A DNA stretch of 64,000 bases, taken from NCBI GenBank assembly GCA_026014685.1, contig JAOZHW010000003.1:35995-99994 (forward strand). The letters run 5' to 3'. Origin of the DNA: Candidatus Bathyarchaeota archaeon. GTDB lineage: Archaea; Thermoproteota; Bathyarchaeia; Bathyarchaeales; Bathycorpusculaceae. Below the pieces are notes generated by a model. That model worked only from the letters and a program-made list of their open reading frames with translations. It was not told the DNA's origin and searched no databases. Position numbers and translations under genes: made by a program. This document shows positions 8,388-29,426 of this stretch, in pieces. Numbering within the stretch: the stretch's first letter is position 1; every line of letters begins with the position of its first letter.

Positions 8388-8476
8388 GGCGTTTATGCCT
8401 TATCTTTGTTTTTATTTTTTGATTTTGCACGTAGCGAAGTAGATAAACAAAAAATTTGGAAAAAGAAAGAATGGGT

Positions 8477-10780: not shown

Positions 10781-13210
10781 TTAGAGTTTTGGTTTAAACC
10801 GCCGCAGAAGCGACGCATTGGTTACGACGGTAACGGAGCTGCTTGCCATCGCCGCCGCAGCATATACGGGGTCAAAGAGCACGCCTAACAACGGGTAGAA
10901 TACGCCTGCCGCCAGCGGAATCAAAGCGGCGTTGTAGAAGAATGCCCAGAACAGGTTTTGGCGGATTTTGCGCATGGTAGCTTGGCTGAGTTGTATGGCT
11001 ACGACTACGTCTCGTAAGTCGTTTTTAATCAGAACTATGTCGCCTGTTTCCATGGCAACATCTGTTCCACTGCCTACTGCGATGCCGATGTTTGCCTGCG
11101 CTAACGCTGGAGCATCGTTTATGCCGTCACCCACCATCGCTACCACTTTGCCCTCAGCCTGCAGCCGTTTGATTTCGTTAGCTTTTTCACTTGGCAAAAC
11201 CTCTGCCAAAACGCGGTCAACGCCAACTTGGGCTGCGATGGCTTGAGCAGTTCGCTGGTTGTCACCTGTTAGCATGATTACTTCCAGTTTCATCTGCTTT
11301 AGCGCTCGGACAGCTTCGGCAGAATGCTCTTTCACAGTATCCGCAACTGCGATTAATCCTACTGTTTTGCCGTCAACTGCCATGAGCATCACGGTTTTGC
11401 CTTGGTTCTCCAACGCAGTCATTTTTGCTTCAACTTGGTTTATGTCGATGTTGTTGGTTTCCATGAGTTTGCGGTTGCCCAGCAGAACCGCTGAGCCGCT
11501 GATTTTGACTTCGACGCCTTGCCCGGGAACGGCAATGAAATCTTCGGGGTCATCGATTTTTTCTCCGTTTGCGGTGGCTTTTTTGACTATGGCTGCGCCT
11601 AATGGGTGTTCGGAGTTCTTTTCTGCTATGGCTGCGTACTGGAGAAGTTGGTTTTGTGTTAGGGGTTTGTCGGTTTCAGCGGCGATTATGTCGGTGACTT
11701 CGGGTTCGCCTTTGGTTATGGTGCCTGTTTTGTCGAATACGACTGTTCGAAGCTTGTGTGCGGTTTCTAGTGCTTCGCCGCTTTTGATTAGGATGCCGTT
11801 TTCTGCACCTTTTCCGACACCGACCATGATGGCTGTCGGAGTTGCCAACCCCAACGCGCATGGGCAAGCAACAATCAAAACGGCAATGAATACGGTTAAC
11901 GAGAAAATTAGGTTTTCACCGACCAAGAAATACCACGCTAACGCCGACAGAGTGGCGACTGTTATGATGGCTGGAACGAAGTAGCCAGACGCAATGTCGG
12001 CTAATCTCTGCACAGGCGCCTTCGAACTCAAAGCGTCTTCGACTAAGCGGATGATTTGGGCAAGCGCGGTGTCTTTGCCGACTTTGGTGGCTTGGAACTT
12101 GAGCATGCCCGTCTTGTTCATGGTGGCACCGATAACTTGGTCGCCTTTGCGCTTCTCAACAGGTATGCTTTCGCCCGTGATGACCTTCTCGTCCACGCCA
12201 GAGTAGCCCTCAATGACCGTGCCGTCTACTGGGATTTTCTCGCCTGGACGCACAACGATGATGTCGCCGACTTGTACCTCTTCTGCAGGCAACTCGATTT
12301 CTACGCCTTCGCGGATGACCCTTGCCGTTTTGGCTTGGAGCCCCATGATTTTGCGGATGGCTTCTGAGGTGCGACCTTTGGCGATGGCGTCTAAGAGTTT
12401 GCCTGCTAAAATGAAAGAAATTATCATGGTGGATGTGTCGAAGAAGACTGCTGCATGGTGAAAGATGTGGGGGGCGAAGGTGACTATGGTGCTGTAGATC
12501 CACGCTGTGGAGGTGCCCATGGCGATTAGGGTGTCCATGTTGGCGGTTTTGTTGCGTAACCCCTTGTATGCGCCGACGTAGAAGGTCCAGCCGATGATGA
12601 ACTGAACGGGTGTGGCTAAGAGGAACATCAAGATGTTGGTTTGCTCCATGGGTAACGGAGGGAACCACATCAAAAGCATGATGGGGATGGTTAATGCGAC
12701 GCTGACCGCCAAGAGCAGTTTGAGGCGTCTGATGTGGCGTTGGCGTGCTTTGGCTTCGGCGTCTTGGACTGATTTCTGCTGAGGCTCAACCACTTCGTAG
12801 CCAACGTCGCGGATGATTTTTTTGATTGCCGCTAAGCTGATCTGCTCAGAATTGTACTCAACCAAAACGCGCTCGGTTGCAAAGTTGACGACGGCACTGT
12901 AGACGCCTTCTTTGGCGTTGAGTGCTTTTTCTATGGTTTTGGCGCAGTTGATGCAGGTCATTCCACCGACTTGGAGGCTGACTTTTTCATGGATAACTTG
13001 GTAACCCGTTTGGGTTATGGTGTCCTCTATGGTTTTCTGGTCGACCACGTCGGGGTTGTAGTCGATGAGGGCTTTCTCTGCGGCTAAATTGACGGTGGCT
13101 TGGGTTACGCCGTTGAGTTTTTTGAGGGCTTTCTCTATGGTCCGTGCGCAGTTTATGCAGCTCATACCGCCGATGTTGAGAACGATTTTTTTGGTTTTCT
13201 GCTGGCTCAT
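10781..13210 (-). CDS. copA: Cu(I)-translocating P1B-type ATPase
   Basis: Two GMxCxxC HMA domains, [29 protein letters not shown] and MxxSS transmembrane motifs. Confidence 0.96.
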
Positions 13211-24438: not shown

Positions 24439-25923
24439 ATGAAGGTTCTCCTCGTCAACCCGCCGCAGACATTCTACCCCGGCTCAGACCCACCCGCAGG
24501 CAACCTGCCCTTGGGTTTAATGTACATAGCTGCGGTGCTCCAGAAAAACGGTTACGCAGTGGAGATTTTGGATACGTTTATGGCAGGTGCGGAGTTTGAG
24601 GAAAAAAACGGCGAATCAGTAACCATCGGGTTCCCCCTTAAGCGAATTGAAGAGGAAATCCGAAGCAGAAACCCTGACATAGTGGGCATCGCGGGGCCCT
24701 TCACCAGTCAAATCGGCCACGCCATCGCCGTCAGCAAAGCCGCCAAAGACGCCAACCCAAACATCCTAACCGTGGTCGGCGGACCCCACGTCACCTTGGT
24801 TCCCAAAGAGTTCCTCGAAGAAGCCCAATCAGTGGACATTGCTGTAGCAGGCGAAGGCGAATATGGCATGCTGGAAATCGCCCAACACTTCGAAGGCAAA
24901 AAACCGCTCAGCGAAATCAAAGGAATCGCGTACCGCCAAAACGGCACCGTCGCCGTCAACGAACGACGACCCTTCATCGAAGACCTCGACGAATTGCCAT
25001 ACCCCGCCTACGACTTGGTAGACATGGAGCAGTATCTTGGACCAAGCAAGATTGGCTACCGCAGTTTTCAAAAACGAGCCATCTCGATGATTACCAGTAG
25101 GGGGTGTCCGTTTAACTGCTGTTTCTGCTCGGTGCACCTGCATATGGGTAAGGGGTTCCGTGCACACAGCGCCAAATACGTCCTCGACCACATCCAACAC
25201 GTCGTAGACAAGTACAAGGTCAAAAACATCTTCTTCGAAGACGACAACCTAACCCTTGATTTGAAACGCTTCGAAGCCATCTGCGACGGCATAATCACGC
25301 GGAAAATCAGAATCGGCTGGGAAACCCCCAACGGCGTCCGAGCCGACCGCCTCACCTTGGAGTTGCTTAGGAAGATGAAGCAGTCAGGCTGCAAAAGCGT
25401 GTTCGTCGGCGTGGAATCGGGCGACCAGCAAATCCTCGACAAAGTGGTCTGCAAAAGCCTCGACCTCAACCGCGTGGTCGAATTCGCCAAGAACGCCAAA
25501 GAAGTCGGCTTAAAAACAGGCGCCTTCTACATCATCGGGTTCCCGGGAGAAACAAAGCAGAATATGCAGCGCACCGTCGATTTTGCCCTTGAAATGAAGC
25601 GTAAATACGATGTGGGTATGCACTTGTTTGCGGCGACCCCATCTTATGGCACACGGCTCTATGAGGAGTGTAAGGCTAAAGGGTATATCGCTGCGGATTT
25701 GTCGTGGAACAGTTTTGCACAAGCCCGCCAAGCAAGAGGGCTCCCTTTGATTACCACAGATGAGTTTACGCCTGCAGAAGTCAAAGAGATCGCTGCTAAA
25801 GCGTTGGCAGAATACAAAAAAATACACCTGATCAATCTGGCGAAGCACCCCACTAAGGCACTTAAGACAGCGTTCGATCAGCCACAGCTGATCTGGAAAT
25901 ACCTCAAAAACTTACCGCCATAA
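24439..25923 (+). CDS. B12-binding radical SAM protein
   Basis: MKVLLVNPP, PLGL.YIAAVL, VGGPH, GEGE, TSRGCPFNCCFC, VGVESG, IIGFPGET. Confidence 0.93.
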   Translation: MKVLLVNPPQTFYPGSDPPAGNLPLGLMYIAAVLQKNGYAVEILDTFMAGAEFEEKNGESVTIGFPLKRIEEEIRSRNPDIVGIAGPFTSQIGHAIAVSKAAKDANPNILTVVGGPHVTLVPKEFLEEAQSVDIAVAGEGEYGMLEIAQHFEGKKPLSEIKGIAYRQNGTVAVNERRPFIEDLDELPYPAYDLVDMEQYLGPSKIGYRSFQKRAISMITSRGCPFNCCFCSVHLHMGKGFRAHSAKYVLDHIQHVVDKYKVKNIFFEDDNLTLDLKRFEAICDGIITRKIRIGWETPNGVRADRLTLELLRKMKQSGCKSVFVGVESGDQQILDKVVCKSLDLNRVVEFAKNAKEVGLKTGAFYIIGFPGETKQNMQRTVDFALEMKRKYDVGMHLFAATPSYGTRLYEECKAKGYIAADLSWNSFAQARQARGLPLITTDEFTPAEVKEIAAKALAEYKKIHLINLAKHPTKALKTAFDQPQLIWKYLKNLPP

Positions 25924-25972
25924 AATTTTGCTCAAAATTGGATTGAGACAAAAAATTATTGCTTCACTGTTC

Positions 25973-26788
25973 CTAATTGTTGCTTCTCCCAATTAAAAAC
26001 GGTTGCATTTCACCATGTAAACTAATCTGTCGATAGTAAACTGTACATTTATAGTTTAAAGTAACAAGGATATTTTCGATTCTCTGTTTTTCTTCGGTAA
26101 ACGTGTTGGCTGCTTTACCAATTTGCTTGTGAACTTCGATAATTAAAACTGGCTTGTTTTTTGTAATGGTGTCTTTAGCGCCTTGCAATATTGGTGTTTC
26201 GTATCCTTCTGTGTCTATTTTGATCACGCCTACGTCGGAAAAGTTAAGGCTGTCTAATTTTCGAACTGGGACATCAATTGTTTCCCCTCCAGGCAGGTTG
26301 ACTTCTTCATCCATAGTTCCTGTCACAGCAAACGGGGTAATCCCTAAACGACCCGAGCTATCTCTGTCTCCTATAGCGTACGGGAATGGGTGAATCTGTG
26401 GGAATTTTTTAGCTCTCTGTTTTAGAATTCGGAATGCTTTAGGCATTGGCTCATACGCATAGACTTCACGCCCTTTTTTAGCAACAAGAAGGGTCCAATT
26501 GCCAACGTTTGCTCCAACATCAACGAGGCACTTTCCTGGTTCAGGGATTATGTATTCTTTGAGGAAGTCTTCGCTGCCCTCGTCATCCCCTTCGTCAGAG
26601 AAATCGTCAACTTTGCTAAAAACATCATAAACGGCTCTGGGAAAAGGAATTCTTCTACGATTAAGTACGCGGAGAATGATGTTCAGGATCATGAATGCAT
26701 CTTTTTTGTTTATAACTATGTCGTCGATTTGTAGCTGTGCCTTTTTGATGTATGTTGACATGATTAATAGTTTGTCTGTGGGAAGCAT
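25973..26788 (-). CDS. FkbM-family SAM methyltransferase
   Basis: VDVGANVG, AYEP, IKIDTEGYE..ILQG. Confidence 0.9.
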   Translation of the reverse strand: MLPTDKLLIMSTYIKKAQLQIDDIVINKKDAFMILNIILRVLNRRRIPFPRAVYDVFSKVDDFSDEGDDEGSEDFLKEYIIPEPGKCLVDVGANVGNWTLLVAKKGREVYAYEPMPKAFRILKQRAKKFPQIHPFPYAIGDRDSSGRLGITPFAVTGTMDEEVNLPGGETIDVPVRKLDSLNFSDVGVIKIDTEGYETPILQGAKDTITKNKPVLIIEVHKQIGKAANTFTEEKQRIENILVTLNYKCTVYYRQISLHGEMQPFLIGRSNN

Positions 26789-26859
26789 ATAACGTTATGT
26801 CTTACTGAGCAAAAATTGCGCCCGATTCTAATTCATGTTAATACTCTGTCTGGTAGGGA

Positions 26860-26883
26860 GGTGGCGGGCCCGCTGGTATTCGA
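26860..26883 (-). repeat. Displaced tRNA-Arg 3' fragment (att-like direct repeat)
   Basis: GGTGGCGGGCCCGCTGG (26860-26876) equals 29300-29316; match extends to 24 bp with 2 mismatches into the T-loop. Confidence 0.9.
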
Positions 26884-26893
26884 CAGCCCTGAC

Positions 26894-26907
26894 ACGAATT
26901 TATCCTG
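26894..26907. repeat. Left inverted repeat of the island
   Basis: ACGAATTTATCCTG is the exact reverse complement of 29280-29293. Confidence 0.85.
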
Positions 26908-27628
26908 TTGCCGCTTGATTACTGTTTAAGCTGGTTGCTAAACACCGAAAGTTGATGGTTCTCCGAATTTTATTCTTAGCCTTTAATTTAATAAAAAACA
27001 CGCCGACAGCCACTATGCCAAGTGTTAAAACCACTGCAACGACATAAGGAAATAGCGCTAAATCTGATGACATTTCAGAGCCTGTCGTCTCTTTTTTATC
27101 GTCTATTTTGGCGTTAGTGTTATCAGGTATATTTTCACCATTTACGTTAAAATGTATTGTACTGCTGTCTAGCCCGATATTATTGTTAGAGTTTGGAAAT
27201 TCATATCTAGCATAAACAGTGATATTATGAGGGCCAATAGGCATGTCGGGTAGAGTTGTATATCCACTAATTAAGTGATATGAAAATATCGAGATAGAGG
27301 TTTTACCATCAGCATCCGTATACTCTAGAGGTACTGGAGTTACTTTGATGCCTACGGTTGTATTTTTTTCTCCATCAATGCTGTAAACAAACTCTATATC
27401 CGATTGCTCTGGTTTAAGAAAACTCTTGACTGAGAAGTTAAGGGTTAGAGGTTGAGAAATATATGTTATGTTTGATGGTGAAGTGATGTTGATAGGTGAT
27501 ACAAGGATGAATGCTTTACCCTCAGGGGTATGTTGTGCAGCCGTAGTTTGATTCTCAATCGATAAAGTGGCTGAGAAACCTAATACAAGTAGAGCAAGCC
27601 AGATTGTAATTTTTTTCAATCTTAGCAC
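26900..27628 (-). CDS. Secreted, C-terminally anchored protein with Ig-like domain
   Basis: Signal peptide, INITSPSNITY...YSIDG...GPHNITVYA, C-terminal TM followed by basic residues; stop lies inside the left inverted repeat. Confidence 0.7.
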   Translation of the reverse strand: MLRLKKITIWLALLVLGFSATLSIENQTTAAQHTPEGKAFILVSPINITSPSNITYISQPLTLNFSVKSFLKPEQSDIEFVYSIDGEKNTTVGIKVTPVPLEYTDADGKTSISIFSYHLISGYTTLPDMPIGPHNITVYARYEFPNSNNNIGLDSSTIHFNVNGENIPDNTNAKIDDKKETTGSEMSSDLALFPYVVAVVLTLGIVAVGVFFIKLKAKNKIRRTINFRCLATSLNSNQAATG

Positions 27629-27764
27629 CTAACACTGTTATAAAAAAGGTCTTATTTAATTCTAATTAAGGAACACTTTGTTCCAAACGAGGAACATATT
27701 TCTTTTTCCACTTCTATAAAAAAAGGGTTTAGGGCAAGTAAGCAAATAAGCATGCCAAGTCTAT

Positions 27765-28481
27765 CTATGTGTTTGTGAACCATAACATATCCGCTAAAAG
27801 GTCATTGTAAATACATTGATCGCCCATCATAGTGTTACAGCCAACGGCGGCGTACTTATACGTAGTTGATGTATAACCGACATAGTGATATGCCCACGAA
27901 TTGATCAGTTGTGTATAACCGATAGGTTCCCAACTCCAGTCTAAACCGCTGTTACTACCCCAGACTATGATGTAGTTACCTGTATGTCCGGGTCCTGTAG
28001 GCCCAAGTTTGCCATAGACGTAGACTTGCCCAAATGAATAGTCATAGCTTAGTCGCCCCGCTATACCTGCCCCTTGATTAAGACCAGTCGTTAAAAACCT
28101 TGTATAGTCATAGTTGATGGAACCGCCAAGAATACCGTTAGGGTTAATCACCTGGCCACCGTACAAGGGTTCTATTTTAGTCAGGTACGTCAAATAGCTT
28201 GGATTAACCGTTAAAGCAGAGGGCTGGAATTTCAAAACAGCGCCATTTGTGTCCGCAATCATTTTTTCCCTTAGCTCGATTTGCTTTATCCATAAACCTC
28301 GAATTTCAGCTAATTTAGCGTCAGTTGCATTAGGATACATCAAAGCAATTGATCCTTCGATAAAATCTGGCAAAACTTTTTCGCTCTTTATGGTTGCCGC
28401 TTCTACAGCAGTTAAGCTACTAGCCAATAGTGCTGCTGAAAGAATGACTACGAGGACAAGCTTAACTTTTTGCATTCTCAA
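27765..28481 (-). CDS. Secreted hypothetical protein
   Basis: Signal peptide ending AVEA, GGAGGTGA Shine-Dalgarno, aromatic/Gly-rich beta C-terminal half. Confidence 0.7.
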   Translation of the reverse strand: MRMQKVKLVLVVILSAALLASSLTAVEAATIKSEKVLPDFIEGSIALMYPNATDAKLAEIRGLWIKQIELREKMIADTNGAVLKFQPSALTVNPSYLTYLTKIEPLYGGQVINPNGILGGSINYDYTRFLTTGLNQGAGIAGRLSYDYSFGQVYVYGKLGPTGPGHTGNYIIVWGSNSGLDWSWEPIGYTQLINSWAYHYVGYTSTTYKYAAVGCNTMMGDQCIYNDLLADMLWFTNT

Positions 28482-28631
28482 TTTATCTTCACCTCCCCTC
28501 CTTTATTATCGCTCAGAAGCAGATGATACAAATGATTTTTTGATTTCTTTTAAATTTTTATGTTAATCATATAACATAAGATGTCAACGCTCAAAGATAA
28601 CCTTCTGAGGTAAGCATCGCTTTTTGTATAT

Positions 28632-28909
28632 TTACATGCTGCTGATGGAAAAGAAATGTCCCGGACGAGAGAGTTTACGGTAGACTAGGATTATGTGCCG
28701 CCGCAAAATTCGTTTGGAAGTACTTCAACGGGACTGCCTGCAACTGCCGAACCTGAAACCTCTCAACCTACGATAAATACTGGATAATCGATAGATGCAG
28801 GTAGCTTTCAACCTCTGGAAAACCCTGGACATACATCATAGTTTGTGTTTCAGTATCTTTATTGGCGGGTCTATATGGATTCGGAAAAAATCTAAAAAGG
28901 CCCGTATAG
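28632..28909 (+). pseudogene. Decayed 3' end of a membrane-anchored surface protein gene
   Basis: ADGKEMSRTREFTVD*DYVPP...TAEPETSQPT...* then frameshift to PWTYIIVCVSVSLLAGLYGFGKNLKRPV*. Confidence 0.55.
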
Positions 28910-28950
28910 AGGCTTAAGATGAAGATTAGCTATAACTAGGTAAGATAACG

Positions 28951-29079
28951 TTGAGGCTCAAAGGCTTGTTTTTAGTAGTCATTATAATCATTGCAAGTTT
29001 AGCTTTCATCTATGCGCAGTCTGTTGCACAAATGGGCATCCATATTCAGCTTTTCCACCAGACGACATTAACCCAATAG
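28951..29079 (+). pseudogene. Signal-peptide-only gene remnant (42 codons)
   Basis: LRLKGLFLVVIIIIASLAFIYAQSVAQ followed by an early stop. Confidence 0.4.
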
Positions 29080-29279
29080 CTTCCTTGGAAAAAACACGCT
29101 AAAGTATCCACAAGCGGAACAATTATTCCCATATCATATAAATGCGAGACGTGCAGCGCTGAGTCTAAACGTTATTGGTACGGAAAAAGACCAAAAGTTG
29201 TTTCTGCTTCTTAAATTCTCGGCGACAAAGTATTACGACCCTCAACCAACATAAAAAAGAAAAGGGAAGGTTTGTTGTG

Positions 29280-29293
29280 CAGGATAAATTCGT
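29280..29293. repeat. Right inverted repeat of the island
   Basis: CAGGATAAATTCGT, ending 6 nt before the tRNA-side direct repeat. Confidence 0.85.
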
Positions 29294-29301
29294 TTGGGGG
29301 G

Positions 29302-29380
29302 TGGCGGGCCCGCTGGGATTTGAACCCAGGATTCTCGGCTCCGGAGGCCGATGCCTTAATCCGTGCTAGACTACGAGCCC
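29302..29380 (-). tRNA. tRNA-Arg(CCG), CCA encoded, no intron
   Basis: GGGCTCG/CGGGCCC acceptor stem, TCGGC-CTCCGGA-GCCGA anticodon arm, CTGGG-TTCAAAT-CCCAG T arm. Confidence 0.97.
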
Positions 29381-29426
29381 ACAACGCAGAACCAAACATG
29401 CAAAGAACATTTAAAGCTAACCCAGC

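Follow-up and report, generated by a model that had tools for sequence, protein, structure and literature searches.

An island bounded by direct and inverted repeats at a tRNA-Arg(CCG) gene of Bathyarchaeota as the probable remnant of an integrative element with a tyrosine integrase

Introduction

We studied a 64,000-nucleotide (nt) stretch of the genome of Candidatus Bathyarchaeota archaeon (GenBank assembly GCA_026014685.1, contig JAOZHW010000003.1, positions 35,995 to 99,994), further referred to as the window. In this stretch, an island adjacent to the gene of transfer RNA (tRNA) Arg(CCG) is bounded by both direct and inverted repeats, and no recombinase gene is seen inside. How does such an island arise? 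A note made earlier from the letters of the window alone (further, the earlier note) had offered a cassette mobilised in trans or a collapsed larger element, with an analogy to casposons. Our analysis indicates, with a probability of approximately 85%, that the island is a decayed remnant of a Bathyarchaeia-specific family of integrative elements with a tyrosine integrase of ~477 amino acids (aa). The puzzling layout, direct plus inverted repeats and no recombinase, then finds its explanation in the standard decay of an element integrated site-specifically.

All coordinates are window positions unless a locus is named; L-numbers denote the compared loci and X-numbers the sequencing runs. Contigs carrying parts of the window came from metagenomes of hot-spring and other runs.

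Results

Repeats at the tRNA-Arg(CCG) gene

The direct repeat GGTGGCGGGCCCGCTGG (plus strand) is present as an exact 17-nt copy at either end of the island (DR-L and DR-R, Table 1), and a longer stretch of 28 nt is 89% identical between the two ends. On the right, the copy is formed by the 3' end of the tRNA-Arg(CCG) gene. These two copies are the only matches to GGTGGCGGGCCCGCTGG in the 64 kb with up to three mismatches permitted, 0.07 being expected. The 3' ends of the other two tRNA genes of the window are not repeated. Inside the direct repeats, the 14-bp sequence ACGAATTTATCCTG on the left (IR-L) has its exact reverse complement on the right (IR-R), and this pair lengthens outward to 27 nt at 81% identity. 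Among ~19,900 pairs of random 60-mers taken from the window, none contained a 14-nt inverted match. The inverted-repeat arms lie 6 and 10–17 nt from the direct repeats, so that the spacing is asymmetric. The G+C fraction equals 0.38–0.41 over 26–29 kb vs 0.47–0.50 in both flanks. Both sets of repeats had been described in the earlier note, and both are real and non-random.

The left end: a remnant of an integrase gene

No intact recombinase gene was found between the repeats, nor any gene for Cas1, a polymerase or a transposase, as judged from the open reading frames (ORFs) and Pfam searches; a tblastn search of the window with the integrase described below gave no match either. To this extent the absence of a recombinase stated in the earlier note is correct, but a short trace of one had been overlooked. 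The left end of the island, from 26860 to ~26985, consists of an attachment site (att) and the final ~85 nt of an integrase gene.

The comparison was made with L050, a locus from a different species whose B12 radical-SAM (rSAM) gene is 76% identical to that of the window. The sequence following the att core in L050, tattcgacagccctgacACGAATTTATCCTGttgccgcttgat, is identical to that of the window and comprises DR-L, the spacer and IR-L. After it, an intact 477-aa ORF on the minus strand encodes a tyrosine recombinase (Pfam PF00589, 1.4e-7, residues 211–384; PHROG phrog_1 integrase, 1e-10), which also has a weak match to the archaeal phage integrase family of Pfam. The motifs GAFREE, VHSLRKY and GHTVDTY were read in it by eye, without alignment to reference enzymes. 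The window segment 26862–26963 is 83% identical to the att and integrase 3' end of L050 in an alignment over 107 nt, and in the alignments the homology reaches ~26985 with a 5-nt deletion. The stop codon of the L050 integrase (ACA GGA TAA, minus strand) falls within the IR-L 14-mer. The 242-aa ORF of the island reads through the remnant to the integrase's own stop, its final ~28 codons being this read-through, and hence the window protein and the L050 integrase share the C-terminus ...NQAATG before the stop. The integrase 3' remnant at the left end means that a recombinase gene was formerly present at the island. As only ~85 nt of it remain, the window copy is a remnant and not a functional member of the family.

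Over 950 proteins in the database belong to the L050-type integrase family, and many of these carry the label Bathyarchaeota. Close relatives, 89–93% identical, are encoded in L101–L108. In L050 and in these loci IR-L is identical or has one mismatch, and thus the 14-mer together with att, for which the earlier note had suggested a search, does occur elsewhere next to an intact tyrosine integrase gene. The integrases of L101–L108 adjoin either a conserved module of genes for 123-aa, ~597-aa and 124-aa proteins or large surface proteins; the same module accompanies the integrase in L066. No function could be assigned to the 596-aa, 123-aa, 124-aa and 323-aa proteins of the elements from searches in Pfam, PHROGs and PDB sequences. 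All intact relatives end with ...caacaggataaattcgNNNcagggctgtcgaata-CCAGCGGGCCCGCC, the core following the integrase gene at whatever locus. In L107 the flank past the core consists of the terminal part of the radical-SAM gene, which places this element at the same rSAM locus (cf. L048). Both in L050 and in L107, integrated beside rSAM, the integrase gene is full length and the core begins 17 nt past its stop codon. Since the gene stays whole upon integration, the integrase is of the non-partitioning type.

Within the 10-kb flanks, none of the integrase-bearing loci (L050, L066, L101–L108) reaches the tRNA-proximal end of its element. L066 is part of the 2.1-Mb contig JBNIDP010000001.1, and L107 of the contig ERZ27297509 k141_2061840. 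Five IMG/VR loci with integrase homologues (L096–L100) contain neither a tRNA gene nor an Arg-type core, and viral contigs did not contain the exact pattern of the integrase-proximal (P) arm plus core. Many digester and bioreactor runs, two of them RNA runs, contain the L050 integrase region. The metatranscriptomes X25 and X33 (anaerobic digesters) contain about half of the sampled words of this region (L050 11834–13400), and therefore the element appears to be transcribed in situ. At L101 12379 and L102 9858, ~0.9 kb past the att of the intact element, there is a degenerate tRNA-3'-like fragment, TTAAATCCCAGCGGGTCCGCCA; no tRNA gene was found in these two loci, which may be rearranged or contain stacked remnants.

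The right end, the joined form and the arm motifs

In four runs (X15, X16, X19 and X20), contigs adjacent to tRNA-Arg align with the window starting at 29242 and continuing across the tRNA; record 9 of X16 spans 29242–29384 with four differences. Therefore the island's final ~60 nt, IR-R among them, are the genuine tRNA-proximal (P') arm of the family. In run X20 we found a 45-nt unitig, AATTCGTTTGGGGGG followed by TGGCGGGCCCGCTGGTATTCGACAGCCCTG, with a depth of 5.3, in which window positions 29287–29316 are joined to 26877–26891. The depths of the contig of the integrated left-junction (attL) type and of the integrase-side contig in this run are 7.9 and 11.1, respectively. The unitig is the predicted attachment site of the element (attP), with two ends joined through one core in a circular or tandem form. 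As the joined form carries a single copy of the tRNA-like core, the direct repeat represents an att core rather than a target-site duplication. A circular junction, proposed in the earlier note as something to look for, is thus represented at the level of the family, be it a circle or a tandem; in X1–X4 no circular joint was observed for the island of the window itself. At the L050 junction, runs X15–X18 contained the integrated form only.

Diverged relatives at the same tRNA end have ...AACAGGATGAATTCGAGTCAAATA immediately before TGGCGGG in X20 and ...AAAACAGATAAATTCGTGACAAAAA in the same position in X19. In both, the IR-R motif CAG(G)AT(A/G)AATTCG has stayed at the 9-nt distance, with a spacer of different sequence. 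The two pentamers of the inverted repeat were then counted in 76 core copies and junctions (GTDB loci and the window), including a second family of element ends with GATGCGCTTAATTATTTAAGCGAATCCT on the left and AAGTACATATTCGCGCGGGGGT on the right. Of the 12 occurrences of ATTCG within 60 nt upstream of the GGCGGG core, 9 are at a distance of 9–10 nt; of the 14 occurrences of CGAAT, 10 are 18–20 nt beyond CTGG of the core. Motifs and spacing are conserved across relatives, and therefore the inverted repeats are conserved features of the attP arms. By their position and conservation, the arms may be considered putative recombinase-binding sites. We also considered IR-R as an inverted second copy of the integrase tail. 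This was rejected for two reasons: the similarity ends precisely where the 14-mer ends on its inner side, and relatives retain the arm in their P' arms.

The empty site and the integration hotspot

An empty site, proposed earlier as a check, was found in relatives. Contigs in X1 and X2 join 25911, a position four codons upstream of the rSAM stop, to 29292 via 11–12 nt, which places rSAM immediately next to the tRNA. The X2 contig has ~96% identity to the window in a match of 499 nt, and ~96% in rSAM. Another contig from X1, 97% identical, joins 25911 to 26856 and thus contains rSAM, the distal repeat and the left end of the island.

Searching GTDB species representatives with the radical-SAM protein yielded 80 Bathyarchaeia loci (Bathy-6 / Bathycorpusculum group), the best homologue having 89% protein identity. 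The tRNA-Arg(CCG) gene is located downstream of rSAM on the same strand in 50 of them. The gap between the rSAM stop and the tRNA varies from 14 bp to 8.5 kb: it is up to 30 bp in 6 loci, 31–200 bp in 6, 0.2–1 kb in 16, 1–3 kb in 8, 3–6 kb in 7, and 6–10 kb in 7. In L038, L043, L045, L047, L048 and L073 rSAM is 14–29 bp from the tRNA, these sites being unoccupied. Extra copies of the tRNA 3' end are present between rSAM and the tRNA in many loci (e.g. L020, L030, L069, L072, L090, L091 and L095). The variable gap and the extra copies show that tRNA-Arg(CCG) is a class-wide integration hotspot. Surface and secreted proteins are the main content of the other islands bounded by tRNA 3'-end fragments at this hotspot.

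Several further observations concern the same site. Left ends of the second family, containing the hairpin GCGCTTAA/TTAAGCG, were seen in L020, L030, L035, L069, L070, L072, L076, L090 and L091, and right ends in L027, L035, L037, L053, L058, L069 and L072; no integrase was found in any island bearing these ends. The islands at L020 11809–19416 and L030 12246–14259, bounded by tRNA 3' ends, contain up to four paralogous beta-propeller proteins of the pyrroloquinoline quinone (PQQ) type with the common N-terminus RKRFxDFRxWCPQPP and an accompanying small helix-turn-helix (HTH) gene, integrase being absent. The tRNA-Arg(CCG) orthologue is 98–102 nt long in nine loci (L061, L062, L067, L072, L073, L083, L085, L090 and L095) and is labelled 'tRNA-???' (ccgg) by ARAGORN; the extra stretch near the anticodon of these genes (such as ggctaacccccgctttgagaagcgtccgg) looks intron-like.

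Table 1. Features of the island and its surroundings, in window coordinates
Feature	Position	Strand	Basis or remark
Separate low-GC insertion/deletion segment with an FkbM-type methyltransferase gene (25973–26788)	25912–26855	-	Pfam PF05050
DR-L, distal att copy, element-type version of the tRNA 3' end	26856–26883 (exact core 26860–26876)		Repeat search
IR-L, arm on the integrase-proximal (P) side	26894–26907		Contains the integrase stop codon
3'-end remnant of the tyrosine integrase gene (pseudogene, 5-nt deletion)	26900–~26985	-	Alignment to L050
Cargo 2, exported 242-aa protein	26900–27628	-	Signal peptide, many N-x-S/T sequons, C-terminal transmembrane anchor
Cargo 1, secreted 238-aa protein, likely start ATG 28475	27765–28481	-	ORF, structure model
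~760 nt without a long ORF or detectable homology	28482–29241		Six-frame and nucleotide searches
Retained ~60 nt of the tRNA-proximal end of the element (P' arm)	29242–29301		Metagenome contigs
IR-R, arm on the tRNA-proximal (P') side of the element	29280–29293		ATTCG 9 nt from the last base of the tRNA
DR-R, tRNA-proximal att copy	29296–29323 (exact core 29300–29316)		Repeat search
tRNA-Arg(CCG), intact integration target, attB in its 3' end	29302–29380	-	ARAGORN; Rfam tRNA 56.4 bits

Cargo genes and the interior of the island

Two ORFs longer than 100 aa are located between the repeats, both on the minus strand; their products have signal peptides and no Pfam match. Some 820 nt of the island lack a long ORF. 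The earlier note had counted two exported proteins and decayed surface-gene fragments as cargo; the former are confirmed, whereas for the latter no homology was found in 28482–29300.

Cargo 1 has no PHROG match and 11 database homologues. Its AlphaFold2 model (predicted local distance difference test, pLDDT, 84.6) contains a helical N-terminal part and a C-terminal beta-sandwich. Foldseek aligned the model with the CBM6/29/32 and discoidin folds (E 8e-5, target template modelling score, TM, 0.55–0.6), and the modelled beta-sandwich is likely to be similar to carbohydrate-binding modules. Homologues of cargo 2 were found in L011 (54%) and L003 (47%).

The two cargo genes occur together elsewhere. 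In contigs from the Joint Genome Institute (JGI), L002–L010, the pair (68% and 47% identity) follows a tRNA-Glu(TTC) gene and is accompanied by two small winged helix-turn-helix (wHTH) genes. At the far side of this island (L003 8352–11935; also in L002 and L004–L010) the 3' end of tRNA-Glu recurs (8403–8442 / 11896–11935, with an exact core of 20 nt), and no integrase was found inside. Its wHTH genes are HVO_A0114-like, and it adjoins the rpl3 operon; an 18-nt imperfect inverted repeat (11877–11894 / 11949–11966) surrounds the distal repeat in L003. In L011 and L012 (81% and 54%, tblastn) the pair is located beside an insertion sequence (IS), and after the pair comes a degenerate integrase-3'/att end. 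The IS (L011 2–1485) adjoins the cargo and encodes a 434-aa DUF772/DDE transposase and a DUF2080 protein. Cargo alignments retrieved no relatives from viral contigs or GTDB genomes, and only three loci from JGI metagenomes. Exact-sequence look-ups of the cargo proteins gave no match, and that of the neighbouring HTH gene an 885-bp contig only.

Six-frame and nucleotide searches of 28470–29305 against all loci and the remaining window gave no match. The final 12 nt of the tRNA-proximal arm, AAATTCGTTTGG (29286–29297), have an exact second copy at 28706–28717, 580 nt inward. Partial 80% matches of unrelated metagenome contigs to 28618–28718 end just after this copy, which may be a vestige of the arm of an older, stacked element.

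The adjacent methyltransferase segment

A separate segment carrying a methyltransferase gene lies between the rSAM stop and the distal att copy, and its right edge is exactly the edge of the distal repeat. It is absent in the 97%-identical relative from X1 in which 25911 is joined to 26856. This segment is not a part of the element. A 72%-identical copy of it is located 3.3 kb from rSAM in L044.

Discussion

Origin of the island

The collapse of a larger element, which the earlier note had listed among its explanations, agrees with the composition of both ends (att plus the integrase tail on the left, the other arm on the right) and with the empty site in relatives. The course of events may have been as follows. 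The attP of an element would have recombined with the 3' end of tRNA-Arg(CCG) through a minimal common core GGCGGGCCCGCTGG, up to 25 bp being shared in this lineage, and integration would have left a copy of the core at either end, producing the direct repeats. An internal deletion, presumably later than the integration, would then have removed the integrase and the replication-type genes. What remains is the final ~85 nt of the integrase gene on the distal side, ~60 nt of the other arm on the tRNA side, and the two-gene cargo, probably kept as useful to the host. The 14-bp inverted repeats would be the two arms flanking the core in attP, which look like terminal inverted repeats once the element is integrated. 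Intact elements of the L050 type would then bear a CAGGATAAATTCG arm at the tRNA-proximal end, with CAG(G)ATAAATTCG ~9 nt before tRNA-Arg.

Several points weigh against this reconstruction. About 760 nt of the island (28482–29241) are not explained by detectable homology. A complete intact element with both ends is present in none of the loci, and IR-R of intact elements is represented by short metagenome contigs only. The 45-nt unitig from X20 does not separate a circle from a tandem array and can be assigned to the family, but not specifically to an intact or a deleted copy. Binding of the integrase at the inverted-repeat arms is a prediction from sequence, and the integrase-proximal arm overlaps coding sequence, which could account for a part of its conservation.

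Alternative explanations

The island might be a functional non-autonomous cassette, moved, like cis-mobilisable elements (CIMEs), by an L050-type integrase acting in trans or through accretion with an incoming element, and shuttling surface-protein genes among Bathyarchaeia. We consider this unlikely, yet several facts speak for it. Both recombination sites look intact (17/17 for the core and 14/14 for the inverted repeat) while the rest of the parent element is gone. The same cargo pair is found in L003, in another island that has no integrase and has repeats of the tRNA-Glu 3' end as its borders, as well as beside the degenerate integrase-3'/att end in L011; other hotspot islands bounded by tRNA 3' ends also carry surface proteins and no integrase (L020, L030, L072, L095); and an L050-like integrase 3' end was seen in run X1 alongside window-like sequence. 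On the other hand, no joined or moved integrase-less copy was observed, X1–X4 providing no circular joint, and the attP unitig of X20 comes from a sample that contains an intact element. The ends of the L011 copy are degenerate, and the same facts are accounted for by the normal path of decay, in which an integrated element loses its integrase but keeps useful cargo.

A broader version, to which we likewise give a small chance, is that the tRNA-Arg(CCG) site serves as a platform for cassettes, where integrase-less att-bounded units with ATTCG/CGAAT arms are gained, stacked and lost via L050-type integrases acting in trans. If so, most units would encode secreted or surface proteins, and the island of the window would be a live non-autonomous cassette rather than debris.

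It is also doubtful that the inverted repeat functions as an RNA element of the episome only, that is, as a terminator or stability hairpin formed by a 14-bp stem and oligo-U in the integrase transcript of the circular form, which would continue past the integrase stop codon into the core and IR-R. The 14-bp stem does appear when the reconstructed attP transcript is folded, in the centroid as well as the minimum-energy structure (-29.7 kcal/mol, z -2.1), and the T-rich tract TTTTCTTTTTT that follows IR-R on the integrase strand is conserved in the P' arms of relatives (AAAAAGAAAGGGGAAAA). However, the loop is 40 nt long, the z-score is modest, and archaeal termination needs oligo-T only. Moreover, in the second end family nothing but the ATTCG/CGAAT pentamers is retained, at unchanged distances, which fits protein-binding sites better.

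A casposon-like or transposon-type element, in which the inverted repeats would be transposase or casposase termini and the direct repeats target-site duplications, is very improbable. Some casposons target tRNA 3' ends, and the order of direct repeat, inverted repeat, cargo, inverted repeat and direct repeat is superficially similar. The analogy drawn in the earlier note fails, given that there is no Cas1, polymerase or transposase, and the arms do not abut the direct repeats, from which they are spaced asymmetrically. The core belongs to the element, as it follows the integrase gene in every relative and is present in a single copy in the joined form; the adjacent gene of the relatives encodes a tyrosine recombinase. 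An IS or a miniature inverted-repeat transposable element (MITE) was rejected as well, because the repeat consists of 17–28 bp of tRNA and not of a 2–10 bp duplication, and the autonomous relatives carry an integrase. Finally, we give almost no weight to an ancestral segment deleted in relatives via two chance repeats: the empty site alone cannot separate insertion from deletion, but rSAM is directly beside the tRNA in distant Bathyarchaeia lineages (the six unoccupied loci named above and L054), the segment has low G+C content, and its ends are homologous to integrase-bearing elements in other species and other flanks.

Implications

Decay of a tRNA-integrated element to att-flanked cargo is of a well-known kind, and the biology of the island is not surprising. 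The element family itself is so far undescribed in the papers that we found on Bathyarchaeia viruses and Bathy-6 genomes, where integrases are reported only in proviruses and small tRNA-Arg elements are not described. The analysis defines a widespread family of integrative elements of Bathyarchaeia, which are abundant archaea of sediments and digesters, by its target (tRNA-Arg(CCG) beside the B12 radical-SAM gene), attP layout and integrase. The integrase/att pair and the mapped hotspot are of use in genome annotation, in tracking the flow of surface-protein genes and, possibly, as a future integration tool.

Comparison with known systems

Like casposons, some of which are located at tRNA 3' ends, the island combines inverted and direct repeats. 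In contrast to them, it has no Cas1, its repeat is an att core that belongs to the element, and the enzyme of its relatives is a tyrosine recombinase.

In attP of phage lambda, Int and accessory proteins bind to arm sites on both sides of the core. The attP studied here is similar in having a short core of identity and conserved motifs at fixed distances on both arms, which are split between attL and the right junction (attR) once the element is integrated. It differs in that there is one inverted pair of 14-bp motifs, 40 bp apart, for which binding is predicted only, and no Xis-like gene was identified.

CIMEs are derived from ICESt1/ICESt3 of Streptococcus thermophilus. Unlike them, the island has an archaeal host and a parent without a conjugation module, and its mobilisation is hypothetical only. 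As in CIMEs, its two borders are functional-looking attL and attR sites of a family that encodes an integrase, and it is devoid of recombination and transfer genes, a state that would have arisen by deletion; tandem arrays with extra att copies are present at the tRNA-Arg site in L091, L035 and L019.

Elements with non-partitioning (pNOB8-type) integrases in tRNA genes, along with their integrase-less remnants, are known from Sulfolobus, Thermococcus and Thaumarchaeota. The family described here differs from them in the host class, Bathyarchaeia, and in its integrase of ~477 aa, whose stop codon is within the attP arm motif; the window copy has lost this gene. The similarities are the tRNA 3'-end target, the att core duplicated as direct repeats, and the integrase gene that lies beside att and stays intact on integration (here in L050 and L107), with decay leaving att-flanked cargo.

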